Source of the DNA: a virus
Length of the DNA stretch: 64,000 bases
Direction: 5' to 3' (one strand)
Virus genome (UHGV): UHGV-1366603
Shown here: piece after piece, positions 7,456 through 59,726 of the stretch
How positions within the stretch are numbered: the first letter of the stretch is position 1
Layout: each line of letters opens with the position of its first letter
The notes under the pieces: generated by a model
What the model saw: the letters and a program-made list of their open reading frames with translations, nothing else
What the model was told of the DNA's origin: nothing
Database searches by the model: none
Program-made: the position numbers and the translations under genes

Positions 7456-7474
7456 ACAGATATTATTTACGTGA
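7456..7474 (+). promoter_or_regulatory. conserved promoter-like motif AGATATTAT-N4-GTGA
   Basis: Exact 13-position motif in an intergenic region about 22 nt upstream of the 7496 start codon. Confidence 0.5.
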
Positions 7475-13109: not shown

Positions 13110-13418
13110 ATGGAAAACTATTCGGGTTGGGCAATTTCGCAGTGCATTGGCTATTCTTTACGTTCTTTAGTGCGTACACTTTATAACAAAAACTCAGGTG
13201 AAGCTATTACACCACAGTTACTGGGCAAATTGGAAGTCGAAGTTAACCACAAATTAAAGCAGTTACTCGACAACCACGTAAGAACAATGCGTTGGGAGTT
13301 TTTGTTGCGTGGTAAGAAGCCGTCAATTACTGTTGTGGCAGAAGGCAGTGAAATTGTTCTCCAATCCAACGCAGACCTGTTTGAAATTTTAACTGAACTC
13401 GAAAAGGACAAAATCTGA
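13110..13418 (+). CDS. hypothetical protein (102 aa)
   Basis: AAAGGA RBS. Confidence 0.45.
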
Positions 13419-14452
13419 TGAAACAGTATTTAGCGTTAATGCAAGACATTCTGGATAACGGCGTTGTCAAGAAAGACCGTACAGGCGTAGGGACACTTTC
13501 TGTATTTGGCCGTCAACTACGTTTTGACCTGAAAGAAGGTTTCCCATTAGTTACTACGAAAAAGGTTCACCTGAAAAGTATCATTCATGAACTGCTGTGG
13601 TTCTTAAACGGTGACACTAACGTGAAGTACCTGCAAGAGAATGGGGTAAGAATTTGGAACGAATGGAGTGATGAAGAGGGGAACTTAGGGCCAGTATATG
13701 GTAAACAATGGCGCGAATGGCGCGACTGTAAAGTTGTGGAATGTCACGATGTAGGACGTACACAACAACTAATGCAGCTCGGTTACAAGTATATTGGGAA
13801 CATAAAGGAAGACGGTACGACGTATTTGGTCTATGAAAAAGCACATGACCAGATCAGTAAAGTTATCCAACAACTTCGTGAAGACCCAGATTCTCGCCGC
13901 ATTATTGTTAGTGCCTGGAACGTAGCCGACCTGGACGACATGGCACTTAACCCATGCCACAACTATTTCCAATTCTACACTACAGAAATGACACTGCTTG
14001 AACGACTGGATTGGTACGAAGTAAACGAGCCGGAAAAATTTGCGAGCGCACCGCTTATTAATCACGAAGATATTGATGATGAAGAGCGGCTTCAAGAAAC
14101 TTTAGATCGTGAGGGCATTCCACGCCGTAAGCTTTCATGTTTTTACATGATGCGGAGCAACGATTACCTACTCGGCGCGCCATTTAACATCGCTTCCTAC
14201 GCTCTGTTAACCTATATGGTTGCACAGCAGTTGAACATGGTTCCAGACGAACTCGTTTACAGCGGCGTAGATGTTCATCTGTACTCTAACCATCTGGAGC
14301 AAGCAAAACTTCAGCTTACACGCGAACCATACCCGTTACCTAAACTGGTTATCAAACGTAAACCTGATTCTATCTTCGATTACAAATACGAAGACTTCGA
14401 ATTAGTCGGCTATCAAGCACATCCACATATTGCGGCCCCCGTCGCAGTATAA
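13418..14452 (+). CDS. thyA: thymidylate synthase (ThyA) carrying two insertions
   Basis: Near-collinear by-eye match to E. coli ThyA (MKQYL..., [39 protein letters not shown], catalytic [21 protein letters not shown]-terminal APVA); TGATG overlap with upstream gene. Confidence 0.9.
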
Positions 14453-16371: not shown

Positions 16372-16418
16372 GTACCTACCTCCGAAAGGAGGTAGGTTAA
16401 CTTTCTTTTTTTCTTTTT
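16372..16418. terminator. bidirectional terminator, member of a repeated hairpin family
   Basis: GTACCTACCTCC-GAAA-GGAGGTAGGT followed by T-run; near-identical copies at 40076 and 57286. Confidence 0.65.
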
Positions 16419-40075: not shown

Positions 40076-40119
40076 GTACCTACCTCCTTTACGGAGGTAG
40101 GTAAACTTATTTTTTTTTC
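40076..40119. terminator. bidirectional terminator, repeated hairpin family
   Basis: GTACCTACCTCC-TTTAC-GGAGGTAGGTA with T-runs on both sides. Confidence 0.65.
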
Positions 40120-40998: not shown

Positions 40999-43056
40999 TT
41001 AGCTCTCCGTACTGTCGCGACGATAAACTTTGATCGTCGTGTTGAACTGCGTCAACAGTACACCGCCTTCAGCTTTAATGTCCAGCGTGATGGAATAGCC
41101 GTTAGCTTTGTCATCCGCTGTCATGTACGCACTCGGAGTAATGTTGGCAATACTATCCAGGCGACCTTCCAAACGCTCGGTGATTTTGTTCTCAATCATT
41201 TTCGCGCGTTCGTCGTCCGTCATACGGCTCTCACCGGACATATCTGCCCAAACTTGATCACTGACACGATAAACGTAAGTCATGATGAAGTTAAACAGTG
41301 CGTTATTCAGCACTGAACGTTCTTCGCTATAGATGGACTGAAGTGCTGGGATGAACAAACGATAGTAGTCGCGGGAACGAGCAGTAACCAGAGACACATC
41401 CCAGTCGGATGCGTAAATCTCGTTACCTTTCCACGGCATACTCAGATCGTACAGATCTTCGATGATCGTCTCTTCACCACGGCTGAAGCGATAAGCAGGT
41501 TTAGCGCGACCTTCACCGGAACCCAGATACTTCGAGAAGAAGTTCGCGATGCTGTAACACATCGGAACCGGTTTCTTGTAAGAGGAATTACGGATGTAGG
41601 CATCCTGACCGCAAATCATCCCACGGCACGCTGGGGTACCGTAATAGGACGATTCAGGTACAGACGTGATCATTTCGATCAGCGCTGTCTTCACGTTCTC
41701 TTCCGTTTGCAGATCGTTACGACCTTGGTTGTAAACGTGGGTGCAAAGAGTCAGGAACGTGTTACGAGAACGACCGATAAAGTTCGTCAGGGCTTTCTTG
41801 GTATCCATGCTGAAGCCGGAATCCCAGAAGCAACCCAGAGAGTATTTCAGTTCGTTATCGTAGCGGACTTTACCGCCATCCGGGAACAGAGACATTTCAC
41901 GGCGAACCAGTTCGTCGTAAACATCGTTGTTCATGGTCCCGTTACTACCGCCTTGCAGGTAGTGGATATTCGAAGCAGAGAAAACAATTTTACCTACTTC
42001 TTCAGACGGGTTAACTTGTAAACCGTCGTAGAGCTGACCGGTTAAGTCAACGCCACCGAAAATATCGACCATATACGGATCGGTAATTGCCGGTTTTGCG
42101 TTTTGAATCTTAGATTGGGCCAGTTTCAGCACCGTTTCCAGGTTTTCACGGTAGATGTAAAACTCTTCGAACGGGCCGTAATCCGGCAGACCACCGATAT
42201 CCGGCATCGTCTGACGATACGCATCTGGAACGACGACTTCGAAGTCCAGCTGGGTGCTCATCGGCTGATAGTATGCATCGGGCTTGAAGCTAACATTGAT
42301 GCTGCTAAGACCTTTGAGGGTCTTCCAAATCACCGGTGATGTTACCCCTGCTAAGGTCTCGAACCATTGCAGTGCGTACATACGTCCGCCTACATTCGTC
42401 TGATAAGCAGACGCAATAGACGGGCTGGATTTTTCGTTCAGCGGAACCAGTTTGAAACCAAATCCGTTGACATCAGAACCCGCGTACGGACCTTTGATAT
42501 CAAAAATCGGATAGAGTTTTGATTTCGCCTGAGTCTCGGTATCAGTCATCGTACCTTCGGTGACGGTGCCCGCTTTTACGGTGCTGACGTCTTCGATGAC
42601 GGACAGACGGAAGACGATTTTCAGACCGTCTACCTGTTCTCTGACTTTCGGCTTACCGCTTACGTCGTACTGAATCACGCCGTTCACACGCTCATAAGCG
42701 GGAACTTTCGTTTCCAGTACGTCAGCAACCAGACGGATAGCTGCGGTTTTCGCATCATCCGGTACCAGGCGCTGATACATGCAATCGTTACCGTTAGCGT
42801 TGAACATCGCCTGGAAAGGTGTGTTAAACGTCGCGTAATCGCCACGCAGGTCGAACAGATCGCGACCAAGCAGAGACAATGCATTATCCCCGGATAACGG
42901 GAACGCCTCGTCGTCTACCCCGCGTGAAGCAAAGGTGAAGATCAGCGGCTTATGAATCGGATCACCCGTGGGGGTCCGAACAAGCTCAGGGACAGAATTG
43001 TCCTGCCACCCCTGCTTGTTATTCAACGGCGCGCCGTTTCGTGGAATAAAACTCAT
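40999..43056 (-). CDS. hypothetical structural protein; candidate tail sheath (685 aa)
   Basis: ATGGAG RBS; size and sheath-then-tube arrangement resemble phiKZ-like myoviruses; no motif-level support. Confidence 0.3.
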   Translation of the reverse strand: MSFIPRNGAPLNNKQGWQDNSVPELVRTPTGDPIHKPLIFTFASRGVDDEAFPLSGDNALSLLGRDLFDLRGDYATFNTPFQAMFNANGNDCMYQRLVPDDAKTAAIRLVADVLETKVPAYERVNGVIQYDVSGKPKVREQVDGLKIVFRLSVIEDVSTVKAGTVTEGTMTDTETQAKSKLYPIFDIKGPYAGSDVNGFGFKLVPLNEKSSPSIASAYQTNVGGRMYALQWFETLAGVTSPVIWKTLKGLSSINVSFKPDAYYQPMSTQLDFEVVVPDAYRQTMPDIGGLPDYGPFEEFYIYRENLETVLKLAQSKIQNAKPAITDPYMVDIFGGVDLTGQLYDGLQVNPSEEVGKIVFSASNIHYLQGGSNGTMNNDVYDELVRREMSLFPDGGKVRYDNELKYSLGCFWDSGFSMDTKKALTNFIGRSRNTFLTLCTHVYNQGRNDLQTEENVKTALIEMITSVPESSYYGTPACRGMICGQDAYIRNSSYKKPVPMCYSIANFFSKYLGSGEGRAKPAYRFSRGEETIIEDLYDLSMPWKGNEIYASDWDVSLVTARSRDYYRLFIPALQSIYSEERSVLNNALFNFIMTYVYRVSDQVWADMSGESRMTDDERAKMIENKITERLEGRLDSIANITPSAYMTADDKANGYSITLDIKAEGGVLLTQFNTTIKVYRRDSTES

Positions 43057-46553: not shown

Positions 46554-48194
46554 ATGGCCTTAACAACTGACATTATCAACAAGGATCGCGGTTTCCGTGT
46601 ATGGCGTCCTGAGGAGCTTTACGCGGCGGAACGACCTACCGGTTACGTACCGAACCCGAAAGATCTGATCGTTAACGATATCACCTCTGGTTTTGATATC
46701 GTCGTAAGCGTTAACTACGCGAAACCCTCGTGGGAAACCGAACCGTGGGGTGGGGTAGGTGTTGCCAACCAGGACGGTCGTCTAAACGGTCACTACCCGT
46801 TACGAAGTGACAAATACCGTGTTTACGTGGACAGTTCAAAACTGCCTGCAACAATGGTCTTGGATAACGCGTTGACGTTTGAAGGACCTGACGTGGACGG
46901 TGTACGTGTCTTCCGTGGTAGCACCGTCGATGACCACGCAGAAATCCTGTCAGGGTATTACAAAGACGGTAAACTCAAATACTCGTACCTGCCCGTACAG
47001 ACCATCTCGGTAGAAGGTGCTGAACGTGTTGTTAAACAAACGCTACCTGGTGCGTGCTTAGCCGACGTCGAAAACGGTGAAGCGTGTATGTTTGCCGTGT
47101 ACTCGGACGTGGGTAACGTGGTACAAATCGGTCATGCCCACATCATCAAAACCAACCTGGTGATGGCACAGGAAACACCGGTTCGTACGGTATTGGGTAT
47201 TAGACTGGTTTCTCCGTTCTTGGTCGACAACGATGGTACGACACTGACGCTGCCTATCAACATGCCTATCGACTCTATTCCGTTGTGGTGTGATGTGATT
47301 TACAGTGACGGTACCAAACGTTTACCGATAGACCAGGCGCGCGTGAAATTCAACGGCTTACGTAACGCCGGTTCTCACGATACCTTCTACATCGCGTCTA
47401 ACGCCGGTAACAGTCTCCCTTGCGTACTGAGTTACAAGCTCTCGAAAGGGGAAACTTACGGTGGTACGGACATCGTCGGTGACACCATCGTGAAGAACTA
47501 CACCGCTGTCACCGAACAGGTTGATGGGGCTTACTCCATGAAACTGTTTGTGGTACCGAGATGGTTGGATGCTACTCGTGGTTATCGTCTGGACTTCCTG
47601 CTGTATAACCTGACGCGTGGTAAAGTTTACGATGCAACAGCACACGTCAACTACACAACGGGCACCACGTTTGACCCGCTACTGATGGGTGTGAAACAGC
47701 GTCTAAACGTCCAGGTTGACATCAGCAAGGTAGACAGCAAGTTCCGTGCGTTTATCCAGTCGCAGTCCTTTGCGATTACACTGGTAAACCCTGGTAACGA
47801 ACTGAACACCAACTTCATTCTGGAGTATCTGCCTGACGGTGAGAAATACGGTGAAAACGTATGGGCGGAGTTCAAATACTCCAACGTTAACTACTCGGAA
47901 ATCGACGTCAGTAACAAAGTCAGCTCGAAAGCAGAGTGGCTTAAACTGCTGTACGAACCGATTTATCCGTTGTACGATCGCCGTAACGAATCGGAACCGC
48001 CTGAACCTACCCATTTCGAAATTCACGTTGGGGGTAAAGTTTACACCTATAGCGTGGACGAGTGGTTAGATAAGAAAGTTATCGATTACCGCGTCCCGTT
48101 AGACGCACCGTTGGTGATCCGTTGGATTCGTCGTACTCCAACCGATACGCTTAACCTTGCAGCGTCACCGATGCTTGCGCATCACATCGAATAA
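46554..48194 (+). CDS. hypothetical protein (546 aa)
   Basis: AAGGG RBS; tightly coupled to upstream gene. Confidence 0.5.
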   Translation: MALTTDIINKDRGFRVWRPEELYAAERPTGYVPNPKDLIVNDITSGFDIVVSVNYAKPSWETEPWGGVGVANQDGRLNGHYPLRSDKYRVYVDSSKLPATMVLDNALTFEGPDVDGVRVFRGSTVDDHAEILSGYYKDGKLKYSYLPVQTISVEGAERVVKQTLPGACLADVENGEACMFAVYSDVGNVVQIGHAHIIKTNLVMAQETPVRTVLGIRLVSPFLVDNDGTTLTLPINMPIDSIPLWCDVIYSDGTKRLPIDQARVKFNGLRNAGSHDTFYIASNAGNSLPCVLSYKLSKGETYGGTDIVGDTIVKNYTAVTEQVDGAYSMKLFVVPRWLDATRGYRLDFLLYNLTRGKVYDATAHVNYTTGTTFDPLLMGVKQRLNVQVDISKVDSKFRAFIQSQSFAITLVNPGNELNTNFILEYLPDGEKYGENVWAEFKYSNVNYSEIDVSNKVSSKAEWLKLLYEPIYPLYDRRNESEPPEPTHFEIHVGGKVYTYSVDEWLDKKVIDYRVPLDAPLVIRWIRRTPTDTLNLAASPMLAHHIE

Positions 48195-48203
48195 AAATAA
48201 AAG

Positions 48204-48229
48204 ACCTCCTACCCGCAAGGGTAGGAGGT
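48204..48229. other. stable hairpin immediately upstream of the terminase RBS
   Basis: ACCTCCTACCC-GCAA-GGGTAGGAGGT; A-rich 5' flank, no 3' T-run on plus strand. Confidence 0.4.
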
Positions 48230-48240
48230 TAGGAGTCTGT

Positions 48241-50349
48241 ATGATACTACGTGAATCGGACTGGCGTTATTATCCAGGCGCTATTGTTGACGATAAAACA
48301 ACAAACAAATCCTTTATCAAGTTTGCTAACTTACTGAAAAAACTGGGTGTAAAACACTGGTATATTCACCTGGCGTTGCATAACCCACTGTTGCAGGGCG
48401 TAGACCCGTTCGATGAAAACCTTTCAGAACAGATGAAGGCATACATCGCCATCGAATGTGCTGAAAACCCGTGGTACTGGTTTAGGGAATGTGTCAGGGT
48501 ACCTGCGGACGGTATGAAGTACGGTTCCCCGTTCCGTATCGACCGTGGTAACTTCTCGATGTACTGGATTTTCTTTAACAACATCGACGTTGCTGTAGAA
48601 TTCTTACGTCAGCACGGTAAAACCGTCGGGATGAGTGGTCTACTGTTGTGGTTGATTCGTTTCTTAGAAAACTCCCGAACCATTCTTATCACAAAAGGCC
48701 CGGCACTGCGTGAAGAAACTATCAACAAACTGAAACAACTTCGTAACGGTTTACCGAGTTACCTCTGGCCACACCACCCTGATGACCCAGATAACCGAGA
48801 AACCTTTGCGTGTTTAGCCCAGGGTAACAAACTGATTACCGGTATCGGCCAAAACGACCCAGAGTCCGCTAACGGTATCGGACGTGGACTTACCGCCGGT
48901 CGTCTGTTCTCGGACGAAGGCCCCTTTACCAAAAACGTACACCACATTCTACCGGCAGCACTGGCATCCGGTACAGCGGCACGTCGTATTAACGAAGCGG
49001 AAGGTGTTCCTTACGGTAACGTATTCGCAACAACCCCTGGTGACTTAGCGACGGAAGAAGGCAAGTACATGTACGAGCTGATGACGTCAGGGATTATGTG
49101 GGATGAGCGCTATATCGACATTCCAACCCGTAAACAGCTTATTGACATCATCCGTTCTAACTCCACGGCAGAAGTCCCACGTATCATGTTCTACGTGAAG
49201 TACAACCACCGTCAGCTCGGGACCACCGATGAACAGTTAGCGGCAATGATTGCGAACGCCAAAGGTACCCCTGACCAGATCCGTCGTGACTTCGGTGGCG
49301 AATGGACGACCGGTGGTCTGAACAAGCCGTTCTCAGCGGAAGATGCAGATCGTATGAATGCTTCACGAATGCGTGCAGTGTTCAAAGATATCTCACCACA
49401 AAACTACGTTACCGACTGGTACTACACCGAAGAAGAAATGATGATGAAACTCAAAGATCGTCATGTCATCGGTTTGGATACCTCCGAAGCCGTAGGTCGA
49501 GATGCGATCGCCATGTCCATCGTCAACTCAGTCACGGCCGAGTACGCCGGTAAGCTTACCGTTAATGAATCCAACGTTATTTCGTTCGCGATCCATTTAG
49601 CGGATTTTATGGTGCGATATCCGAACACGGTGCTGATTCTGGAACGACGCTCAACAGGCTCATCCGTTGCAGATGCGGTTATCCTGCAATTGCAATCACG
49701 GGTGCCCGATTTACACCGTCGTTTGTTTGTGCGAATCACCCAGGACTACTCGCGTACGGACGATCTCTACAAAGAGTATCACCGTGGCCCAGTGGGGAGC
49801 GCAGAGAAATTCTGGAATAAATTCCGCAAATACATCGGGTTCTCAACCGACCAGGAGAAACGTCGTAAACTGTACGGTGAGGTATTCACCACCGCGTTGC
49901 GCTTGTCTGCCGATAAACTCCGTTGTGGAGAACTCATCGACCAAATTCTTAACCTCGTGGAGAAAAATGGTCGTATCGACCACAAAGCATCCGGTCACGA
50001 TGACCTTGTGATTTCTTGGTTACTTGCGATGTGGTTATTGCTACTTGGAAATAACTTAGGACATTACGAGATCAACAACAGCCGTTTGATGATGCGTAAT
50101 CGTAACTTGGCTGAAAACCGGGAAGGGGTGGACGAAGAGTTACAGCTCGAAGAGGAAGCGCGACAGCAAAAACTGATGGGGGAAATTGAGCAGTTAGTGA
50201 GAACGACCCACGGGTTACTCGACCCGGTTCAAGCAATGGCCGCTCGTAACCGACTTCAGGCCCTCATCTCTCAACTTAACACTGATACACAAAACGTGGC
50301 GTCAATGGAAAGCTTGAGAGAGCTTCTCCAACGCCAGAGGATGAAGTGA
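48241..50349 (+). CDS. terminase large subunit (TerL), T4 gp17-like
   Basis: ATG 48241 with AGGAG RBS; Walker A LRQHGKT (T4-type RQxGKT); C-terminal nuclease-like acidic segments IGLDTSEAVGRD and DHKASGHDDLV. Confidence 0.65.
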   Translation: MILRESDWRYYPGAIVDDKTTNKSFIKFANLLKKLGVKHWYIHLALHNPLLQGVDPFDENLSEQMKAYIAIECAENPWYWFRECVRVPADGMKYGSPFRIDRGNFSMYWIFFNNIDVAVEFLRQHGKTVGMSGLLLWLIRFLENSRTILITKGPALREETINKLKQLRNGLPSYLWPHHPDDPDNRETFACLAQGNKLITGIGQNDPESANGIGRGLTAGRLFSDEGPFTKNVHHILPAALASGTAARRINEAEGVPYGNVFATTPGDLATEEGKYMYELMTSGIMWDERYIDIPTRKQLIDIIRSNSTAEVPRIMFYVKYNHRQLGTTDEQLAAMIANAKGTPDQIRRDFGGEWTTGGLNKPFSAEDADRMNASRMRAVFKDISPQNYVTDWYYTEEEMMMKLKDRHVIGLDTSEAVGRDAIAMSIVNSVTAEYAGKLTVNESNVISFAIHLADFMVRYPNTVLILERRSTGSSVADAVILQLQSRVPDLHRRLFVRITQDYSRTDDLYKEYHRGPVGSAEKFWNKFRKYIGFSTDQEKRRKLYGEVFTTALRLSADKLRCGELIDQILNLVEKNGRIDHKASGHDDLVISWLLAMWLLLLGNNLGHYEINNSRLMMRNRNLAENREGVDEELQLEEEARQQKLMGEIEQLVRTTHGLLDPVQAMAARNRLQALISQLNTDTQNVASMESLRELLQRQRMK

Positions 50350-50647: not shown

Positions 50648-52018
50648 CTGTAACGAACGAATCAGGAAGTAAAGCAGCAGCGCGTTACGCAGTGCAGCTA
50701 ACGCAGACTCGTGACGAATGTGGGTCTCTTTCGCGGCCAGTTTCTCAATACGAGAACGCAACGACAACACATACGGGTTAGGCGATTTCGACGCCTGGTA
50801 CAACGCCCGCATACGCTGTAATACCGTAACCGCATCGTTAAAGTTAATTCGATTGGTAACGATTTCGTCAAAAGCGTGGGACAACGTGTCTTCCATGATG
50901 CTGTTAACCTCATCACGTTTCTTCCCGATGGGGAGTCCTGCGATATACGTCAGCAACGTTTTCAGTGCCGCAGGTGACGCCTTCGGTACCATCTCCAGCA
51001 CCACACGCGCCAACTCTTCTTTGTACAAATTGTTGATATCGTAAGACGCATCAAACAGGTTCTGTTTTGCGATTTCCAACGCACCAACTTTGTCACGAAT
51101 CACCGACTGACCGTCTAACTCCACACGCGCAGACTGACTAACGACACGAGCGTTCTCACGACGTACACGGTCAAGCACTGCGTAGTAGTCTTTCACGGTT
51201 TGTTTCGTACGGGTGTTCAGGTCAGTGATATAACGCAACACCATATCCGGTGCATCAAACCGTTTTACCGCATCGTAGTTAGGGTATTCCGGGGAGCAGA
51301 AATACGTTGCACGTTCTGCCATGTGCAACCCCCAGTTCCCTAAACGACGAATATCGAATTTCATCGACAGCATCGAGTACGCGGCTTCAGCGGCAGGTAA
51401 ATCTACCGGCTTCGGGAAGAAGTGGTAGTAAATACTGGAGTAAAATTTGAACTGAAGAATCGTCACCAGGTCAATAGCCGCAGCGAGAATCTCTTTGTCA
51501 CCGAACTTCGGAATCATCAGGTGCAGTAAATACACAATGGTCAGGTTATACGTGTCACCCGCTACCTGCCAATCGGTATTGATGGAATGCGACTCTTTAA
51601 TCAGCTCTGACAGGTAGTCTTCGTCGATGTTAATCACCTCATCGAACAGACGGTTACGGTCAGAATCGAAAAAACGAATGCTGTGGACACCGAGGAGGTT
51701 CGACCCTAACCACTCGACGTTACCTTCACGAGAGAGTATCCCGCTTACGTAGTGGCGCAGCTTAGACGCCAGCTTGCGATCAATCACGAGTTTGTTAAAC
51801 ACGCTGTCAAACGCTTTACGTAAACGGTCGTCGTGACGGGCTTCGTGAGCGACGGAGAATCCCATCGGTACGTAGCCACCAAAACCGTAGTCGTAGTACA
51901 AACCCGGTGAGGTTTCCGCGTCGTCGAAATACGGGTCGTGACCGAACGATTCCTGAGCAACGCGGGTTCCGGTAGTTTGATAACAACCGGAGGTAAAATC
52001 ATAAACCAGTTCAGCCAT
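50642..52018 (-). CDS. hypothetical protein (458 aa)
   Basis: GAGGT RBS on minus strand. Confidence 0.5.
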   Translation of the reverse strand: MAELVYDFTSGCYQTTGTRVAQESFGHDPYFDDAETSPGLYYDYGFGGYVPMGFSVAHEARHDDRLRKAFDSVFNKLVIDRKLASKLRHYVSGILSREGNVEWLGSNLLGVHSIRFFDSDRNRLFDEVINIDEDYLSELIKESHSINTDWQVAGDTYNLTIVYLLHLMIPKFGDKEILAAAIDLVTILQFKFYSSIYYHFFPKPVDLPAAEAAYSMLSMKFDIRRLGNWGLHMAERATYFCSPEYPNYDAVKRFDAPDMVLRYITDLNTRTKQTVKDYYAVLDRVRRENARVVSQSARVELDGQSVIRDKVGALEIAKQNLFDASYDINNLYKEELARVVLEMVPKASPAALKTLLTYIAGLPIGKKRDEVNSIMEDTLSHAFDEIVTNRINFNDAVTVLQRMRALYQASKSPNPYVLSLRSRIEKLAAKETHIRHESALAALRNALLLYFLIRSLQK

Positions 52019-52033
52019 CAGTGAACCTCGAAA

Positions 52034-52052
52034 TTATTACGGATAGATATTA
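52034..52052 (+). promoter_or_regulatory. conserved promoter-like motif AGATATTAT-N4-GTGA
   Basis: Exact motif (AGATATTAT at 52036-52044, GTGA at 52049-52052) about 39 nt upstream of the 52091 start. Confidence 0.5.
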
Positions 52053-52090
52053 TCCTAGTGAGAGTCTTATTACCTAAAGGAGTTTTTACC

Positions 52091-53215
52091 ATGAGAAATT
52101 ATCTGCGCAAACCCGCTTGGCACAAGATGTTGCGTGAAGGTACCATCGACCGCGAACAGCAAGTCAAGATGTGGGTGCTTCCTCACGGCGTAATTTGTGA
52201 CCTGGTCAGAGTCGGTGGGATGGACATCCTGCGTAACGGTACCTACGACGCCGTCAACTCGTTCTTAGCACGAGAGCTGGCGGAAGCAGGGTTACAAGGC
52301 GAGGTGTTATTTTACACCACCCGTGTTATCCCACAAACGCTGTCTAAGTGGTTAACGTACTGGCTGTCTAGTGACCCTGACGCATCAGACCCCGAACTGA
52401 GTTCGGTAACGATTACCACACTAGGCCAGTATCCCACGAAACCCTTACCGTTCCAGGTGAACGTTGTTGAGCCGCTAATCGTAAAAGCTGGTGACGTGTT
52501 TGACATGATTAAAGTCAAATCCCGTAACCAAGCCGTTTCCCAGTTCATCATCGAAACGGGTGAACACACATTCCGATTAGAACCTGTCCGTAAAACCGAT
52601 GCGACGCTTCTGGCCGTAACGGATTACGGAATCGTTTGTCGTTCTTCCGAAGGACATACCTTCCTGTGCACGATACTCTCACGACGTATTCAGGCACAGT
52701 TAGAGCACTACAAACTTTCCCTGGAAGACATCGTCGGTACGACGTTACGTATCGAATACACGATGTACACGGAAGGGAATCGGCTGTGTAATTACAAGTC
52801 CCCTATCGCTTACCGAGCGTTAGCGCTGGACAACATGGGAGACTGGGTCTCAACGACATACGAAGGGCCTTCCCCCTTCAAAACCATTCCAACACAACGA
52901 CCGGCGTTGTTGACCGTCACCCGCTGTAACCGTGCCGAGATTTTCGAGGAAGAGGGTGTGATTTCCGGTTACGAACGTGAAACAGGGTTAACGCTTTTCC
53001 GCTTCCGACGGGGTGCGGAGTATGGTCGCTACGCAGCGGTGTTCGAACGAGACGGTAAGCAAGAAACCTGGCTTTTCGAATCGGATTTCTCCGTTGAGGT
53101 GATTGACCCTGAGGGCTTTGTGGCTTCAGTGGGGAGTCAGATTTTCTACGCCACGGGCTACAGCCTGTTGGACGTAAAACTGCACTACCCTCAGAAAGAA
53201 CAGGTCTGTCTGTAA
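52091..53215 (+). CDS. hypothetical protein (375 aa)
   Basis: ATG 52091 with AAAGGAG RBS preferred over the upstream ORF-track start. Confidence 0.5.
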   Translation: MRNYLRKPAWHKMLREGTIDREQQVKMWVLPHGVICDLVRVGGMDILRNGTYDAVNSFLARELAEAGLQGEVLFYTTRVIPQTLSKWLTYWLSSDPDASDPELSSVTITTLGQYPTKPLPFQVNVVEPLIVKAGDVFDMIKVKSRNQAVSQFIIETGEHTFRLEPVRKTDATLLAVTDYGIVCRSSEGHTFLCTILSRRIQAQLEHYKLSLEDIVGTTLRIEYTMYTEGNRLCNYKSPIAYRALALDNMGDWVSTTYEGPSPFKTIPTQRPALLTVTRCNRAEIFEEEGVISGYERETGLTLFRFRRGAEYGRYAAVFERDGKQETWLFESDFSVEVIDPEGFVASVGSQIFYATGYSLLDVKLHYPQKEQVCL

Positions 53216-53223
53216 AAAATTAT

Positions 53224-53262
53224 CGGATGGCTTCGGCCATCCGTTTTTTTTTTATTTTTTTG
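53224..53262 (+). terminator. intrinsic terminator
   Basis: CGGATGGC-TTCG-GCCATCCG followed by T10. Confidence 0.7.
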
Positions 53263-53760
53263 CCAAAAAACCTTCGACCTCCTCAGAGCGATTCTAACGC
53301 ATTTTTAGGTCGAGGTGGTACGTTCGTATACCCTGGGCCAGTTTTTCTCGTTAGAGAGCTTCTCAGGAAGAATTTGACGGGGTTTTATTCCCTGTCGAAG
53401 AATTTATTTTACCCCAAACCGCAACAAACCCCAAAACCGGGTGCTGGGTTGTCTCTGGAAACCCTATCCGGTTGGTGATTTTTTAACCGGATTTCGTAAA
53501 ACGCTCTAGAAACGATTTTAACGCAGTTTTTACCCCTACCCAGTACACTTGGGTTACCTGACCCCGTTTAGCACGTTGTGGAGCGATTGAGAAAGCGTAC
53601 GACCCATTGCCGTGGGTGGGTGAGACCCGACCCTGCCACCCGACGGCCAGCCGCCGCGCCGATCAAAAAAACATTCACGCTTCGCGTACTAACGGATCAA
53701 GTGATTGGATCAACTTACTGAATCTTCACACACTGAAGATTCAGGTTGAGTAGTTATCTT

Positions 53761-54260
53761 GCTTGGTTTTTTAAATACTCTCGAGAGACCTCAAGTCTCT
53801 CGGATCGATCTTAAAAATTTAACTCTCTCAAAAACCTGATCTCAAGATCTCTTCCTTATACGCGTGTGCGTGCGCACACGTATAGTATAATATATTTATT
53901 TATAAATATATTATTCCTTTAGGATCAAAATAATAATACCTTTAGGTATTATTTAATTATATATTTTAATATATATTTATTTTAATAAATATAAATATAT
54001 TAAATAAATATATTAATAATATAATTATTATATATAATATATATTATATATAAATATATATAAAACGCGCGCGATCCTTATTATGAGATCTGATCTCGCT
54101 CTGACCCCCAGTGAGGGGGTGGGGATCGGTGAGCGGTATTTTCCGGAAAAACCGAAAATCGTACCCGGGGTAATTCGCCAGGGTAAAATCCCCACCTGGG
54201 GGATCGGGTAGGGGGTACCCTTCCGGGGGAGATCCTGAACACCTGACCAGGGGGTAAAAC
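53761..54260. other. gene-free AT-rich tract flanked by a GATC cluster, palindromes and G/C tracts; candidate replication origin or packaging/terminal region
   Basis: About 180 bp of near-pure A/T (53881-54060); 11 GATC sites counted in ~440 bp; inverted repeats such as GTGTGCG-TG-CGCACAC and AATAATACC-TTT-AGGTATTATT. Confidence 0.45.
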
Positions 54261-54299
54261 CCCATTCCCCTTTTTCGAACGTTAAAACCCTATGGTATG

Positions 54300-54912
54300 T
54301 TCGGAGGATTTGCGTGGGGTTGATTTACAACCACGAAGATTTTTCGGAGTTCAGGTATTACTGCTCACAGCTCAACACGATTACTGTCTGCGATGATTCA
54401 GCAGAGCTCGAACCCCCTGGTTGGTTATTGGCCAGGGGTGTTTTTTCAAGTGCATGGATTTTGGTTCACCGTGTACTGGGAAAAACAAAACGTTCGGCCT
54501 AACACTGGCGATTTGTTTTACTATGGGGTTTCCGTGACTTCGGATAAAAACCTCAGGGGTTGGTAAACCCCACGAATTCAGGTGCTCGGTACCGTTCCCG
54601 CGACTTACGAAGTTTGGGGAAAGCCGCGCTATCAGCGACGCGTGGCCGACATGAGAAAATCCGAGTGAACCGTGGCAGCCTCTGGGGGCGACGTTGGCGA
54701 GAGGTCCGTAGAACTTACCTGCGGGCAGCCGACGGTGGGATGCGTCCCCAGAGGTGCGGCCAGAATCCGAATTACGACGTTGCGTCGAAACAACCCTGCT
54801 CCAGGTAGCGCTGGCAGTGTGATGTCCTCTAGCTTGACGGCTCGCAAAGACGAGAGGGGTGCGTACTCCCGTTGAGAAACGCCGGTACGCAGCTGAATTA
54901 ATTTTTTACGGA
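54300..54912 (+). ncRNA. candidate structured non-coding RNA region (unclassified)
   Basis: GC-rich segment unlike flanking DNA; many nested inverted repeats; internal terminator-like hairpin at 54413-54446; only Arg-rich or TTG/GTG-start ORFs. Confidence 0.3.
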
Positions 54913-54955
54913 ATTTCCTGTTGGTGTGACACAAACCACGGCAGGAGATTTTAAT

Positions 54956-55288
54956 ATGGATTCCAAAGACGTTCCGAACATCGGTTCGAATGTCCCGTAC
55001 CGACTCGATGAATTGGGTAGGCTGCTAAAGGCACCCGAGAATTGGGGTTGTTATGATTCGTCGCTGCTAAACTGCATCGAGACAGTGACGGTGAACCATT
55101 GGCGAAACACAGAGCTTGTTACGGTTTGTGTTAAACTCACCGGTGGTCAGTTGGTTACTCACACCCCGTCTCCCAAGGAGCCGCACGTGGGTTATCGCCC
55201 TTACCTGTTCTCAGCGGTTCAGAAATGCTTACACAAAGCTATCATGAAATACGCCGAGCAATGCATGGCTACGTTCATCATGGATTGA
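54956..55288 (+). CDS. hypothetical protein (110 aa)
   Basis: ATG 54956 with AGGAGA RBS; upstream of the HslV-like gene. Confidence 0.5.
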   Translation: MDSKDVPNIGSNVPYRLDELGRLLKAPENWGCYDSSLLNCIETVTVNHWRNTELVTVCVKLTGGQLVTHTPSPKEPHVGYRPYLFSAVQKCLHKAIMKYAEQCMATFIMD

Positions 55289-55299
55289 GGTTCGCCTGA

Positions 55300-55800
55300 A
55301 TGACTACGATTGTTTTTGACGGAAAGACGTTAGCTTGCGATGGCCAAGTCACCGTGGAAGAGCGTAGTGCTGCCACGCAATACCGTAAGATTCACACGCC
55401 GCCTGAGGGTACGACGTGGAAGCTTTTGGGTGAAGACGTGAAAGCAATTGGTTTGGCAGGTGATGTCGCCGCATTGCAATCCGTGCGTCAAGAACTCACG
55501 CTTGAACGTTTCGGCGGTATCGAACGGGGTGGGGTTCGTTTTGAAACGACGTATCCCGAACAGATTGAATTTATCGTACTTGCTGTTTTGACAGACGGGC
55601 GCGTTATCGACGCCTCGAAGTGCAAAGACAACAAATACGCCAGTTACGTGTTTGTAGAACCGCCGTATGCGATAGGCTCAGGTGCTCACTATGCCCTGGG
55701 TGCATTAGGCGCAGGCGTTGACGCCCCCACTGCGGTGGAAGTGGCGAAACGTTATGACCTGTACAGCGGCGGTCAGACGCAAACGCTTAAGCTGTTTTGA
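55300..55800 (+). CDS. HslV-like (proteasome beta-type, Ntn-hydrolase) peptidase
   Basis: N-terminus MTTIVFDGK...ACDGQVT parallels E. coli HslV MTTIVSVRR...AGDGQAT; later YAIGSGAHYALGA parallels IAIGSGGPYAQAA; GAGG RBS. Confidence 0.65.
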   Translation: MTTIVFDGKTLACDGQVTVEERSAATQYRKIHTPPEGTTWKLLGEDVKAIGLAGDVAALQSVRQELTLERFGGIERGGVRFETTYPEQIEFIVLAVLTDGRVIDASKCKDNKYASYVFVEPPYAIGSGAHYALGALGAGVDAPTAVEVAKRYDLYSGGQTQTLKLF

Positions 55801-55809
55801 AGTATTTAG

Positions 55810-55882
55810 ACCATTGAAGTTAGAGGAATTAACACCCGACTAATAATCGGTTATTTCGCAGGTTCGAATCCTGCCATTGGTC
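55810..55882 (+). tRNA. tRNA-like gene, anticodon uncertain
   Basis: Canonical T-arm GCAGG-TTCGAAT-CCTGC; acceptor stem with one mismatch; D-stem GTTA/TAAC; 73 nt; anticodon loop register ambiguous. Confidence 0.4.
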
Positions 55883-55989
55883 GCCCAGATTAGAACAATC
55901 GAACAAGAGTTACAAACTCGTCAGCCTTCAACTGAGCGTCGGTTGTTCTGATAACTTCTGCTCTTGCTCACGGGTAGAAAGCTCCTTAA

Positions 55990-56110
55990 AAACGTGTAAA
56001 CACCTACCGATTAAGTTCGGACTTACGTTAGGGTCGTGAGACCCTGGTGGTTAGACCACCTAAACGGTTGTACGGTGGGAGGATAACACCTCCCACCTGC
56101 ACCTACCAAG
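55990..56110 (+). other. cluster of short stable hairpins, possible small RNA or processing signals
   Basis: TAAGT-TCGG-ACTTA, GGGTC-GTGA-GACCC, GGTGG-TTAGA-CCACC, GGTGGGAGG-ATAACA-CCTCCCACC in series. Confidence 0.3.
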
Positions 56111-56261
56111 AATTTAATTATTGGGTATTTCCCCTAAGTGTAACGTGAATACCCTGTAATGTGAATTGAGAGTTACGTGTTAACTCGACGGTACTGGTCG
56201 TTGGTCACCTGTAAACCTTCATCGTCCCATGTCATGCTGTGTTTGACCAGTACCGAACTTT

Positions 56262-56333
56262 GTCGCTAAGCCTGGTGACGTGGCTACACACCGAGGCTGG
56301 GGCTCGACACCCGTTAGCGACACCCTTTTTTGC
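56262..56333 (+). terminator. terminator-like structure ending the tRNA/hairpin region
   Basis: GTCGCTAA...TTAGCGAC outer stem enclosing a structured insert, followed by ACCCTTTTTTG. Confidence 0.35.
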
Positions 56334-56394
56334 GTTATTGTCAGTATTCTGAAGCTGTGTTCAGTGACAATAGCGTTTTTTATTCGCGTTGGCG

Positions 56395-56450
56395 TTTGTA
56401 CCATTGCTGCTCTTGCTGTCATTGCTGCCACTGCCTGCTGCGCCTCAACA
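56395..56450 (+). repeat. imperfect 9-bp tandem repeat (TTGCTG core, about 4 copies)
   Basis: ATTGCTGCT / CTTGCTGTC / ATTGCTGCC / ACTGCCTGCTG read directly. Confidence 0.4.
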
Positions 56451-56536
56451 GACGTCAACGCGACCCATTAACCCACACGTCGGGGTATAGCGACGTACAA
56501 CAGAACGAGTAGTAGTAACAGAACGAGGCAACAGAA

Positions 56537-57184
56537 ATGCTTACAGTAAAACGTATTATTAACGGTGACCGTGTCATCACTGTGCACGAACGTGTACGTT
56601 TAGGTGACAGAATGTCCCGTGTTTACAAAGAAGCACTTAAAGTCGTTAACGGCGAAGATAACGAATTGTGTTTTGATAACGCGATTGATTTGCCGAGAAA
56701 ACCGAAACCGGTGAGCTATACCGCTTTAACTGATATGTCCGTAGAGGAACAGAAAAGCACCTTAGCCAACCTGCATCCGTTTTTGCACAATGTGTCAAAT
56801 TGGACCGTTGTCATCGGCGGTCGACCTATTCCAGAGGATGTACCACGTGTGGTGATTGTTAACCCGCGTATGCCATCCGTCGAAGAAAAGAATTCGCCAG
56901 TCGACGAAATTTATATTCCTGGCAATAATTTCTATTGCCGGTTTTGTGGCTTTACACAGCGTGAAATGACGTATGTGATGCCACCTCAAGAAATCCAATT
57001 AGTCCGTGAGCTGATTAACGAAGACGGTGATACCTTCTATCAGAATCAGCTCCGTAGCGGTAAGCACTCCGTTGACGAGGCTATCGGCGTGTTACATGTC
57101 GACGATGCTTACGAATTTTTCTATCCAGGTGATGCGGTTTACATCATGAACAGTGAAGGTAAAACCATCGATAACCTGAGATAA
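56537..57184 (+). CDS. hypothetical protein (215 aa)
   Basis: GAGG RBS. Confidence 0.5.
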   Translation: MLTVKRIINGDRVITVHERVRLGDRMSRVYKEALKVVNGEDNELCFDNAIDLPRKPKPVSYTALTDMSVEEQKSTLANLHPFLHNVSNWTVVIGGRPIPEDVPRVVIVNPRMPSVEEKNSPVDEIYIPGNNFYCRFCGFTQREMTYVMPPQEIQLVRELINEDGDTFYQNQLRSGKHSVDEAIGVLHVDDAYEFFYPGDAVYIMNSEGKTIDNLR

Positions 57185-57285
57185 CCAGTTTAGCTCTGCC
57201 GAAAGCTAAAGCCCGCCCTTCGAGAATGCCCATTCTCATGCCCTGAAGGGTTTAATCCTGTAGTTTCATGCCGATGCCAGGGAAC

Positions 57286-57326
57286 GTACCTACCTCCGAA
57301 AGGAGGTAGGTATATTCTTTTTTATC
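57286..57326 (+). terminator. intrinsic terminator, repeated hairpin family
   Basis: GTACCTACCTCC-GAAA-GGAGGTAGGTA followed by T-run. Confidence 0.65.
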
Positions 57327-57340
57327 GCAAAATTTTAGAG

Positions 57341-57359
57341 ATAGATATTATTTTAGTGA
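57341..57359 (+). promoter_or_regulatory. conserved promoter-like motif AGATATTAT-N4-GTGA
   Basis: Exact motif (57343-57351, GTGA 57356-57359) about 46 nt upstream of the 57405 start. Confidence 0.5.
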
Positions 57360-57404
57360 ATGTTCGCGTGAAACGTTTACTTCGACTTTTTAGGAACTGA
57401 TAAA

Positions 57405-57845
57405 ATGAAATTAGATGCGATTGAAGGATTAATGGGTATGGGTTATTCATTCGAAGAAGCGGCGGTTATTCGTCCGTTTCTGTCACGTCATTTCTCCGTG
57501 TGGCAAGCGTTACCTGAAGATGGGCCAACCGGTAAGTTAGTAGAACGATTCGTTGAGCGTGTGCTGAATCGAAATCGGAATGAATTTAGTTTACGGTGGG
57601 CGGACGGGAAAGAGCGTAAGCACCTAAACCCTAATCCGTGGTGTATGTTGGTGTTTCGTTGTGACGGTGAAGAATTTACGTTCCCGGCTATTGAATTTGT
57701 AAGACGGTACGGTTTAGCGATTTACACCGAGTTAGGAACAAACGGGGCAGGTCGGGTATTAGTTTACGACAGAGGTGAGTTACGCATTAAAACGAAGCAG
57801 TTAGCAGAACTCTACCACGAACGACACGTTGCCGAATTAGTATAA
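57405..57845 (+). CDS. hypothetical protein (146 aa)
   Basis: AGGA RBS; downstream of the conserved motif. Confidence 0.5.
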   Translation: MKLDAIEGLMGMGYSFEEAAVIRPFLSRHFSVWQALPEDGPTGKLVERFVERVLNRNRNEFSLRWADGKERKHLNPNPWCMLVFRCDGEEFTFPAIEFVRRYGLAIYTELGTNGAGRVLVYDRGELRIKTKQLAELYHERHVAELV

Positions 57846-57872
57846 CTATAAATCAGCTATAGAGGGTGTTTG

Positions 57873-57899
57873 GGGACTGCGTGTCCCCATTTTTTTTTG
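57873..57899 (+). terminator. intrinsic terminator
   Basis: GGGGAC-TGCGT-GTCCCC followed by T9. Confidence 0.7.
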
Positions 57900-57939
57900 A
57901 TTTTTACGGTACTGGTATGTATTTATAGGAGGTGGTACC

Positions 57940-58341
57940 GTGAACGAACAACCACAATACGATTTCTATAGTTTACTAGAACAAAAGCGTTTTCCGAACG
58001 AAGTTGCAATTCGTAGTCGATTGGGGTTTCATGTTATCTACATGTTAATGCCAATTATTACTGAATACCCTGCTTTTAAAGAATGGTTTGATAGCATGGA
58101 GTCTGAAGATGTGTCTTCTGTTTTAATGCATGAAGATGTCCCTGTTATCAGGACGAATTACCACATCACCAGAAACGAAGTCTGTGCTACAACGTCAAAG
58201 TTTGTACAGTCGTTTATGGTTGAAATCAGTCATGCTGTTATAAACCAACAGATTACCGTTATGGAAGCTTTCTCTGTGTTATTGGATGCAATCTGTAGTT
58301 TCCAGTACCAGGCAACCAATAAGCTGTCTAATGTCCATTGA
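57940..58341 (+). CDS. hypothetical protein (133 aa)
   Basis: GTG start with GGAGGTGG RBS. Confidence 0.45.
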   Translation: MNEQPQYDFYSLLEQKRFPNEVAIRSRLGFHVIYMLMPIITEYPAFKEWFDSMESEDVSSVLMHEDVPVIRTNYHITRNEVCATTSKFVQSFMVEISHAVINQQITVMEAFSVLLDAICSFQYQATNKLSNVH

Positions 58342-58360
58342 GTTATAGTGGGAGAGAAAA

Positions 58361-58741
58361 ATGAATACTACACTGCGTCCACTGGACGTGATTTTGGTGC
58401 ACCCGGACGCATTGAGTAAAATCACTCTACGGTGCGAGTTAGACAAAAAACTTATCACGTCTTTAGAGTGGGGGTTTGTATTACATCCCGACGAATACAA
58501 AAATACACGCTACAGCGATATTGCTGAAGGTTCAGTCATCGACTGGGGTGTACCTGAGGGTTACGATGATGTCGTGCAATATATGTCAGAGATGACGGTT
58601 CCGTACAGCTTACCGATTGCTGGCCCTGCGGAGAATATCATTTCTTTACGTCGTCTTGTGAATGCCCAACCTGAAAACATTCGCAACGGTGTGGCGTGGA
58701 CAACAGGAACCGCATGTCATTTAAAAAATATGTTGCAGTGA
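58361..58741 (+). CDS. hypothetical protein (126 aa)
   Basis: GGGAGAG RBS. Confidence 0.5.
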   Translation: MNTTLRPLDVILVHPDALSKITLRCELDKKLITSLEWGFVLHPDEYKNTRYSDIAEGSVIDWGVPEGYDDVVQYMSEMTVPYSLPIAGPAENIISLRRLVNAQPENIRNGVAWTTGTACHLKNMLQ

Positions 58742-58752
58742 AAACGATAAGA

Positions 58753-58794
58753 CCCACTACTCGAATGGAGTAGTGGGTAGGTTTTCTTTTTTTG
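58753..58794. terminator. bidirectional terminator
   Basis: CCCACTACTC-GAATG-GAGTAGTGGG followed by T-run. Confidence 0.65.
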
Positions 58795-59607
58795 TTAAGA
58801 TTTGAAACGACCGCCAGACATGTAGTTGTAACGGTTGCCTGCGTCGTCGTTGTGAACCATCGCACGCTGTAGACGTGGTAGGTTGTCGTTGAACATTTCC
58901 CCGGCGTCGGAATAGCCCTCGATAACGTTTTTAAACGCCCCGAACTCCATACCGTTTTCAAGATGACCTGAATCCATATCGAAAATCATTTTGTTGTAGA
59001 TGACCTGTTTAGTGGCGTACAGTGCCATATCTGCAACTACCGGATAGAAGGCCGGTTTGATTTCGTTTAAGTCATCAGACAGTGCAAACTTAACTTGAAG
59101 CTTAGTTGCGTAGACGAACATCCCAGGGTCTTTGATTTTGATGGTGTTCGGTCCAAGTTTCTTAACTTCGGGTGAGGAAATACGTGGCATTGCCGATTGA
59201 CTATCCACTACTTGTTGCGTGGAGGCCAGTACCCCTGAAGTTGCCCCGTCTAAATAAGACCCTGCTGGGGGTAAGGTGTACGCTTGTCCTGCCACTGGTG
59301 TTACGGCGATATGGACGTCCAGTATCGGTCTACCCCCGGTTTTAATGTCATCCAGGTAATAGATACGTGAGTAGTAATCCTGGGTGTCGTTCTCAAAAGG
59401 TAAACCTTGGAGGTCGATTTCGGTGTATTGACCTAGACGGGAAACTTCCGGGATGAGGTATTCTTTAAATACCTTTTCAGTAATCTCGTTATCCAGGGAT
59501 GACGCAACACCATAGTAGCGAAGATTTTTAGGTACAAACGCAGCGCGAAGAATCGGTTCTGGAATCTCTCGACGTATTCTCCGTAGACAGTAGTCGATGA
59601 CACTCAT
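58795..59607 (-). CDS. hypothetical protein (270 aa)
   Basis: AGGAG RBS on minus strand. Confidence 0.5.
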   Translation of the reverse strand: MSVIDYCLRRIRREIPEPILRAAFVPKNLRYYGVASSLDNEITEKVFKEYLIPEVSRLGQYTEIDLQGLPFENDTQDYYSRIYYLDDIKTGGRPILDVHIAVTPVAGQAYTLPPAGSYLDGATSGVLASTQQVVDSQSAMPRISSPEVKKLGPNTIKIKDPGMFVYATKLQVKFALSDDLNEIKPAFYPVVADMALYATKQVIYNKMIFDMDSGHLENGMEFGAFKNVIEGYSDAGEMFNDNLPRLQRAMVHNDDAGNRYNYMSGGRFKS

Positions 59608-59726
59608 TGTGTGCTCCTGTTAGCTCTGTAAAACGGTTCATAGGATCGGGTAATGGGTAACTACGACATTACTAAAAAATACACTCCACGCCCTTCCTGT
59701 GCGCACTATACTCGAACTTTTTTTGT

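Follow-up and report, generated by a model that had tools for sequence, protein, structure and literature searches.

The 64,000-nucleotide stretch of the virus genome UHGV-1366603 analysed in this study (the window) derives from a jumbo phage, which a comparison of the region around the element described here places close to SPN3US, phiEaH2, and Asesino. In a long intergenic gap the window contains a real, conserved, and previously undescribed cis element, which resembles E. coli oriC and the P1 pac site in combining AT-rich sequence with clustered GATC sites, but fails the motif tests of both families. Judged from its sequence, this single-copy, cis-acting DNA may be the lytic replication origin, or first duplex-opening site, of SPN3US-like jumbo phages; the assignment is tentative, and the element is the best current candidate for the replication origin of this phage group. 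An origin is placed first because the element is unique, has a clamped unwinding core, carries palindromes maintained at the DNA level, and tracks the replication module. The first-pass annotation had called the region a candidate origin or packaging/terminal region, had likened it to oriC-type origins and P1 pac, and had pointed to a possible use of host Dam sites. The first of these proposals is still the most sensible reading and has been strengthened by the uniqueness of the element within a whole genome, by its conservation in several genera, by the covariation of its palindromes, and by purifying selection on its core, whereas the likeness to oriC and P1 pac by their defining motifs and the use of host Dam did not hold. 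An origin and a packaging site are not separated by the computed results.

The upstream plus-strand gene ends at 53215 and the next credible gene begins at about 54926-54950. The gap, which is the largest intergenic gap of the window, therefore runs from 53216 to about 54925 and measures approximately 1.7 kb rather than the 1 kb of gene-free sequence first reported. Small open reading frames (ORFs) within it matched neither PHROG nor Pfam families, and two of them (53227..53478 on the plus strand and 54044..54265 on the minus strand) are hit by indels at 53251, 54225, and 54246 in the 97.3% identical strain L020. The near-pure A/T sequence of about 180 bp previously noted at 53881-54060 proved to be 94.4% A/T, with 10 G/C positions. 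The AT core as delimited here, a candidate DNA-unwinding element, occupies 53885-54065 (94% A/T), and contains one GATC site (53923), a palindrome, and an A/T-only run of 119 bp (53947-54065). Beyond the gap, A/T-only runs in the window reach at most 13 bp, and the core is the sole AT island of the 64 kb. It is bounded on both sides by GC-rich clamps. To the left, a TCCTTAT box is followed by the left clamp (53853-53884 for both), in which TATACGCGTGTGCGTGCGCACACGTATA forms a 28-bp run of perfect purine-pyrimidine alternation, the longest in the window with a runner-up of 16 bp. To the right, the clamp CGCGCGCG and the near-invariant box GATCCTTATTAnGAGATC occupy 54066-54097 together with GATC sites at 54073, 54087, and 54092. 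TCCTTAT flanks the core on either side in direct orientation.

The clustering of GATC sites stands out against a depleted background. The window holds 150 sites, where base composition predicts 248 and a Markov model 302, and 14 of them fall within the 571 bp of 53661-54231, a density roughly 5 times the unbiased expectation of the Markov model. In 20,000 simulations that placed 150 sites at random, this number was never reached (maximum 11; P<5e-5). The earlier count of 11 sites within 53790-54235 was exact, and the suggested check of local density against the genome came out in its favour, in the window as well as at the homologous locus of the complete SPLA1a genome (240,348 bp). GATC is found in SPLA1a at 0.40 of expectation, and nowhere in that genome is it denser than at the homologous locus, which is also the sole place where 60 bp reach 90% A/T. 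Besides the sites in and to the right of the core, the cluster comprises three outer sites on the left (53661, 53695, and 53708, in 53661-53711) and two pairs between the palindrome P2 and the left clamp (53803-53849), namely GGATCGATC (53803, 53807) and TGATCTCAAGATCT (53838, 53846). GATC is absent from 51779-53660. As separate observations, the 5.4 kb to the right of the cluster (54232-59643) contain no GATC, where about 12 would be expected at the depleted average of the window, and a second, weaker cluster of eight sites in about 700 bp is found at 41032-41712, with three sites within 20 bp (41445-41464). The latter falls within a minus-strand gene (40999..43056) that corresponds by position to an SPLA1a gene annotated as tail sheath; that SPLA1a gene, near 238.1 kb, has a local GATC peak too.

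Four perfect palindromes with arms of at least 8 lie within 236 bp, whereas elsewhere in the window such repeats occur at 0.42 per kb, as single terminators. The three inverted repeats already reported are all perfect and correctly located, and P2 was added as a fourth. P1, CTGAATCTTCA-CACAC-TGAAGATTCAG (53718-53744), has 11-bp arms around a 5-nt centre; P2 is CGAGAGAC-CTCAA-GTCTCTCG (53782-53802); the left clamp encloses CGTGTGCG-TG-CGCACACG (53863-53880); and the core contains AATAATACC-TTTA-GGTATTATT, which can also be written AATAATACCT-TT-AGGTATTATT (53932-53953) and is conserved. As single-stranded DNA the left arm of the element folds markedly better than shuffled sequence (z = -4.4, 0/200 shuffles), which counts in favour of an origin, but the right arm does not (z = -1.7). 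Among the left outer GATC sites lies a mini-hairpin, ACGC-TTC-GCGT (53677-53687), whose minus strand, ACGCGAAGCGT, contains GCGAAGC, a sequence reported to form a very stable DNA mini-hairpin in single-stranded phage origins. From left to right, the parts of the element are thus arranged as a terminator, a conserved block, a GATC site, the mini-hairpin, two GATC sites, P1, P2, the two GATC pairs, TCCTTAT with the left clamp, the AT core, the right clamp with GATCCTTATTAnGAGATC, GATC, G-run hairpins with three GATC sites, and two terminator-like hairpins.

The same layout was found in SPLA1a/SPN3US, MET_P1, phiEaH2, Asesino, Wellington, pEa_SNUABM_11, Huxley, several uncultured contigs, and, more weakly, Caitlin; the genera represented are Seoulvirus, Erskinevirus, Wellingtonvirus, and Machinavirus. 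Three GATC sites are near-universal: the leftmost is CCGATCA, CAGGATCTTTT marks the left border of the core, and GATCCTTATTA is found at the right clamp. GATC pairs likewise lie between the palindromes and the left clamp in SPLA1a, phiEaH2, Wellington, and Huxley. The mini-hairpin is kept in nearly all relatives, its 4-bp stem covarying between GCAC/GTGC, CCGC/GCGG, and GCGC/GCGC. At the position of P1, SPLA1a has GTAACCGACA-CACAC-TGTCGGTTAC, and both phiEaH2 and Asesino have GTAATTCGCA-TCTC-TGCGAATTAC. GC-rich palindromes of differing sequence occupy the position of P2 in all relatives, and the left clamp is palindromic in every one, with covarying sequence. The core palindrome takes the form ATACCT/AGGTAT, ATATCT/AGATAT, or TATCCC/GGGATA depending on the relative, for example ATATC..GATAT in phiEaH2 and TATCCC-GTA-GGGATA in Huxley, L007, and Caitlin. 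The arms of these palindromes are perfectly Watson-Crick paired without any G-T pairs, a pattern consistent with a constraint acting on the duplex or on the two strands alike.

Although the length of the core varies among relatives, each has an AT island. To its right, the 18-mer GATCCTTATTAnGAGATC is identical, except at the N position, in the window, L005, SPLA1a/SPN3US, phiEaH2, Asesino, Huxley, L007, and L009, and SNUABM_11 carries GATCCTTATTACTAGATC in its place. An arrangement of G-run, GATC, and G-run to the right of the core recurs in phiEaH2, Huxley, L007, and Wellington, and in the syntenic gap of CR5 and Phobos it takes the form GGGGGGATCAAGGGGGG. Matches to the 18-mer (GATCCTTATTANGAGATC / GATCCTTATTATGAGATC) were also obtained in unrelated marine viral contigs (L006, L008, L010, L011, L014, L016, L017, and L019); these were put down to chance because they lie inside a long ORF and their number is as expected for the size of the database.

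A comparison with strain L020 extends these observations to a shorter evolutionary distance. Both sides of the outer base pair of P1 are changed in this strain (53718 C>T and 53744 G>A), so that C..G has become T..A, and the stem of the upstream terminator shows a compensatory change as well (A>G at 53227 and T>C at 53240). Over the 365 bp of 53745-54109 only one difference was found where about 10 would be expected, and it is located in the loop of the core palindrome. By this sequence comparison the core is under purifying selection. The comparisons of layout, palindromes, and strains therefore indicate that the element is real, single-copy, and selected for both sequence and symmetry. The caution that the region could be an assembly artefact is settled by an independently assembled, 97.3% identical strain that is colinear across it, and by the same layout in isolates of at least four genera.

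The first-pass annotation had regarded the GATC sites as a possible case of a phage using sites of the host Dam. SPLA1a encodes a D12-class adenine methylase (Pfam PF02086, 1.7e-52), homologues of which are located at the same genome position in all four genera carrying the element; the window's own lineage has them too, in four contigs and with 67% identity. The methylase of this lineage scores above the threshold of the Dam family model TIGR00571 (239 bits, cutoff 115), and the nearest relative with a solved structure is E. coli Dam (1e-60); these two matches are the reason for assigning it a probable GATC specificity. Reliance on host Dam was thus the wrong framing, since the relatives as well as the window's lineage encode an E. 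coli Dam-like methylase of their own, and the phage, on the strength of these matches, need not depend on the host enzyme.

The framing is further countered by the Derbicusvirus phages. In the syntenic gap of CR5 and Phobos there is no AT island and only 1-2 GATC sites, with the GGGGGGATCAAGGGGGG motif kept, and the complete CR5 genome (JX094500.1) has no Dam homologue. CR5, in which GATC occurs at 0.17 of expectation, nevertheless has its sole AT-rich island (13224-13331) overlapping its top GATC cluster, with eight sites in 13266-13433. This site is placed in a convergent gap, two genes past that for the DNA polymerase and at a distance of 18.6 kb from the terminase gene. In Phobos (L140 3560-3815), where the site is conserved in part, the adjacent G-run motif ACGGGGGAGGGGCCTACGGGGGAGGGGGTAATATG is exactly conserved with CR5, and five GATC sites are present. 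The pairing of an AT island with GATC sites thus recurs without sequence homology and without a phage Dam, which suggests that GATC is read by another or an additional factor. Its position in CR5, beside the polymerase gene and far from the terminase gene, suggests that the pairing moves along with the replication genes and not with the terminase, which favours replication over packaging. Avoidance of GATC is weaker in the Dam-encoding phages (0.40-0.50) than in CR5 (0.17). GATC is counter-selected in enterobacterial phages, and a weaker avoidance in phages that encode Dam fits this.

Clustered GATC next to an AT-rich tract had been taken as a hallmark of oriC-type origins and of the P1 pac site, but the defining motifs of these systems do not bear this out, as DnaA boxes, an IHF site, and a TGATC(A/G) array are all absent. 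The array of oriC 13-mers (GATCTnTTnTTTT) is missing, with one GATC-bearing site at 53846 that has two mismatches. The IHF consensus WATCAANNNNTTR has no match in the gap, and in place of the P1 hexamer array there is a single TGATCG on the minus strand at 53660. Sigma-70-like promoter matches inside the AT core were discounted because they are an effect of composition and because phiKZ-type phages are not known to rely on the host RNA polymerase.

On the other hand, the element shares general features with several known origins. As in E. coli oriC, an AT-rich unwinding region is combined with a GATC excess at positions conserved across at least four genera, in an otherwise motif-poor genome and with Dam-family methylation available. 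It differs from oriC in the missing DnaA boxes and 13-mers, in GATC sites that flank the AT core rather than lie inside it, and in its GC-rich palindromic clamps and row of long perfect palindromes. Moreover, related phages replicate in a protein-bounded compartment, probably with phage proteins. T4 oriF and oriG and the primary origin of T7, which are primed by a transcript and consist of a promoter with an unwinding element downstream of it, likewise have AT-rich unwinding sequence, and the core of the present element contains a promoter-like half-site; the phage studied here is large and virulent, with RNA polymerases of its own and T4-like recombination genes. Unlike these origins, the element has no complete phage promoter-like motif, and its palindromes and GATC sites have no counterpart in T4 or T7. 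The oriS and oriL of herpes simplex virus, a virus of the same realm as the tailed phages, resemble it in their A/T-only centre, GC-rich symmetric flanks, and extrudable perfect palindromes, but there is no sequence or protein homology to their origin-binding system, and the phage core is much longer and is not one large palindrome. Finally, an AT-rich region next to repeats with internal symmetry that are candidates for protein binding is also seen in lambda and in plasmid iteron origins; these differ in having a direct-repeat array, of which none was found here, and the 8-mer GGGTAAAA, enriched around the core in the window, is not kept in SPLA1a.

In a more specific version, which is held more loosely than the origin assignment itself, the clamped A/T-only core would be melted with the help of cruciform-forming palindromes, and a GATC-reading system, serviced in most lineages by the phage's own Dam, would set the timing of firing or the hand-over to packaging. 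In the mechanism proposed with the origin assignment itself, a phage protein, probably a dimer, would bind the palindromes, or these would extrude as cruciforms. Superhelical stress could then melt the AT core, with the GC clamps bounding the bubble, at which the phage DnaB-like helicase and the polymerase would be loaded. After the first rounds, replication might become recombination-driven as in T4. The GATC sites would be read by a GATC-specific factor and, in Dam-encoding lineages, be N6-methylated, which would ease melting and mark replicated versus unreplicated copies.

Several observations weigh against such an origin. Methylation is the weakest part of the model, because the GATC cluster is independent of a phage Dam, as CR5 demonstrates, and the equivalence of the CR5 element is one of shared features and not of sequence homology. 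A single fixed origin might also be dispensable, should replication depend mostly on recombination as it does in T4. No initiator gene was identified beside the element, where the neighbouring proteins have no recognisable domains. Between 53216 and 54925 no DnaA box (TTATCCACA / TTWTNCACA) was found with up to one mismatch or by the relaxed consensus, and iterons (at least three direct repeats of about 17-22 bp) are absent, since only two-copy families occur besides A/T low complexity. In addition, no clear switch at the element was seen in the sliding and cumulative GC skew over the window, in the cumulative G-C of the whole SPLA1a genome, or in the third-codon-position skew of same-strand genes by distance in SPLA1a and CR5; all three results are uninformative rather than negative. 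As regards short repeats, the 8-mer GGGTAAAA / TTTTACCC, which is found twice on each side of the core in inverted orientation and is enriched in the gap of the window, was dropped because it is not conserved in SPLA1a.

One rival reading is a pac-like site for the initiation of packaging, where the terminase complex would recognise the palindromes and GATC sites and make the first headful cut, possibly with a P1-like dependence on methylation of the GATC sites to either side. The large terminase gene (48157..50349) ends 2.9 kb upstream of the element, a distance of a few kb as at P1 pac, GATC pairs lie on both sides of a central AT stretch, as they do in P1, and the window's lineage, like P1, has a Dam of its own, encoded in its contigs. 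Within the AT core, moreover, several public records and a metagenomic contig start or end, and several related records do so near the element. We consider this reading unlikely. Neither the P1 hexamer array nor the IHF site is present, the size of the element far exceeds that of pac, and a cut site needs no 119-bp A/T-only run. The terminase is T4-like, and sequence-independent packaging is assumed for it; in published work, headful packaging of the T4 type is assumed because the terminase is homologous to those of phiKZ and T4, and these phages have no known small terminase subunit. Independent SPN3US-like assemblies begin at arbitrary positions. Position 1 of public records is set by alignment to SPN3US, and this, or possibly assembly breaks in A/T-only sequence, explains the record ends near the element. 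CR5, finally, keeps its GATC cluster without a Dam at 18.6 kb from the terminase gene and beside that for the polymerase.

Doubtful, too, is a transcription hub made up of terminators of the late operon, promoters of the next operon, and small-RNA genes, in which the hairpins would be structures of RNA and GATC would tune a promoter through its methylation, as at Mu mom or pap. Clear terminators at 53224, 54250, and 54414, a structured covarying element at 54845-54900 on the plus strand, the tRNA gene 0.9 kb further on, and the core palindrome half-site TAGGTATTATT, which is one base off the promoter-like core TAGATATTATT, are in keeping with it. The promoter-like motif is not complete in the element, however, although it occurs five times in the window and 10 times in SPLA1a, and P1, P2, and the clamps are unlike terminators because their arms are perfectly Watson-Crick paired, with no G-T pairs and no T-run following. 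Promoters and terminators are many per genome, whereas the AT island with its GATC cluster occurs once, and known methylation-sensitive promoters use far fewer than 9-14 GATC sites. Such a hub may well describe the right-hand 700 bp of the gap and leaves the AT/GATC core unexplained. A structural or topological site is considered distinctly unlikely, whether it be a topoisomerase or gyrase site, a supercoil sink of cruciform or Z-DNA, a break site for SbcCD-like proteins that seeds recombination-dependent replication, or an anchor of the genome to the capsid or phage nucleus. The 28-bp alternating run, the dense perfect palindromes, and the SbcC/SbcD-like and UvsX-like proteins encoded by these phages are compatible with it, but no feature sets it apart from the origin model, with which it overlaps, since a start seeded by a break is in effect an origin, and the conservation of GATC is left unexplained. 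That the region is low-complexity sequence arising by chance or by misassembly, without function, is scarcely credible; A/T-only sequence is difficult to assemble, and breaks within the core are seen in some records and contigs, but this explanation is excluded by the colinear independent assembly, the layout shared by at least four genera sequenced by different groups, the significance of the GATC cluster, and a core that changes less than the neighbouring genes.

In the literature searched, no origin, pac site, or mapped termini have been described for SPN3US-like phages or Chimalliviridae, and a review of jumbo phage biology from 2026 makes no mention of one. Relatives of these phages replicate inside a protein-walled nucleus, and for none of them has an origin been defined. 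As a single, sharply bounded, and conserved feature, the element offers a concrete site at which to seek the start of replication in jumbo phages related to phiKZ and SPN3US. It would help in building minimal replicons and engineered jumbo phages, and would account for the retention of a GATC cluster by genomes that avoid GATC. Should it instead be the start of packaging, the assumption that these phages package without sequence preference would be overturned.

The element lies at the boundary between the late structural and terminase block and a block leading to the DNA polymerase, helicase, and SbcD, a position that counts in favour of an origin. The gene order is large terminase, a 458-amino acid gene on the minus strand, a 385-amino acid gene, the long gap, and then small genes and a tRNA, and it is kept in Seoulvirus (SPLA1a and MET_P1) and Erskinevirus (phiEaH2). 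The terminase region is about 76% identical in nucleotide sequence to the SPN3US, phiEaH2, and Asesino group; the phage collection contained no closer isolate, and uncultured relatives include a 224,831-bp contig with 97.3% identity to the window across 12.1 kb. Both neighbouring proteins matched PHROG families of unknown function and had no Pfam domains. The label of putative DNA ligase that two public records give the 385-residue protein (52058-53215) is unsupported here, because it has no Pfam domain and a family-profile search yielded no solved relative.

The remaining parts of the gap are arranged around the core. A terminator hairpin, CGGATGGC-TTCG-GCCATCCG (53224-53253), is intrinsic with T-runs on both strands; it closes the upstream plus-strand gene and would stop leftward transcripts as well. 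It is followed at 53479-53560 by a conserved non-coding block consisting of TTTTTTAACC, AAAACGCTCTAGAAAC, and the palindrome ACCCA-GTACACT-TGGGT, with local alignments to SPLA1a and Huxley; CCCAGTACACTTGGGT is present once in the window and once, at the equivalent position, in the SPLA1a genome of 240 kb. On the right of the core, the G- and C-runs mentioned in the first-pass annotation take the form of GATC-bearing hairpins (54104-54236), ACCCCC-AGTGA-GGGGGT and ATCCCC-ACCTG-GGGGAT, with GATC at 54124, 54202, and 54231 and GGGGATCGG at 54121 and 54199. Two terminator-like hairpins on the plus strand (54250-54280 and 54414-54448) suggest short non-coding transcripts or leaders, and the pattern of a hairpin followed by CTTTTTCGA to the right of the element is seen again in SPLA1a, Caitlin, and Huxley.

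The promoter-like motif TAGATATTATyynnGTGA precedes plus-strand genes, on the plus strand, at 7458, 37258, 52045, 57343, and 59729, and SPLA1a has ten copies of cAGATAtATATTAyyTAgGTGA, all on the plus strand. By analogy to phiKZ-type phages, it probably serves the virion RNA polymerase of this group as its early promoter. No full copy was found inside the element, whose core has only one half-match with four mismatches per strand, at 53944 (plus) and 53941 (minus). The likeness of the core palindrome half-site to the promoter core, which in phiEaH2 amounts to identity, is suggestive but carries little weight in A/T-rich sequence.

Immediately before the first gene beyond the gap, the conserved block 54760-54925 contains a structured element (54845-54900). 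Its consensus fold from five phages has 18 pairs, eight of them with compensatory changes, and invariant G-U pairs favour the plus strand; it has no match in Rfam and is a candidate for a new RNA motif or leader. Searched with Rfam 15 at E<=1, 52000-58000 gave only a tRNA (55810-55882) and an overlapping antisense, sub-threshold match to Plastid-ycf2. No tRNA was found by the tRNA scan within the gap, and 0.9 kb past it a tRNA-Ile with the anticodon AAT was identified at 55809-55885 on the plus strand (ARAGORN; Rfam tRNA model, 40 bits). Among bacteria this is an uncommon anticodon. SPN3US-like relatives have a tRNA-Trp at the corresponding place. Near-identical terminator hairpins of the form (G)TACCTACCTCC-loop-GGAGGTAGGTA close three genes of the window (16374-16397, 40077-40103, and 57287-57312), and a related ACCTACCTACC hairpin is present in CR5 and Phobos.

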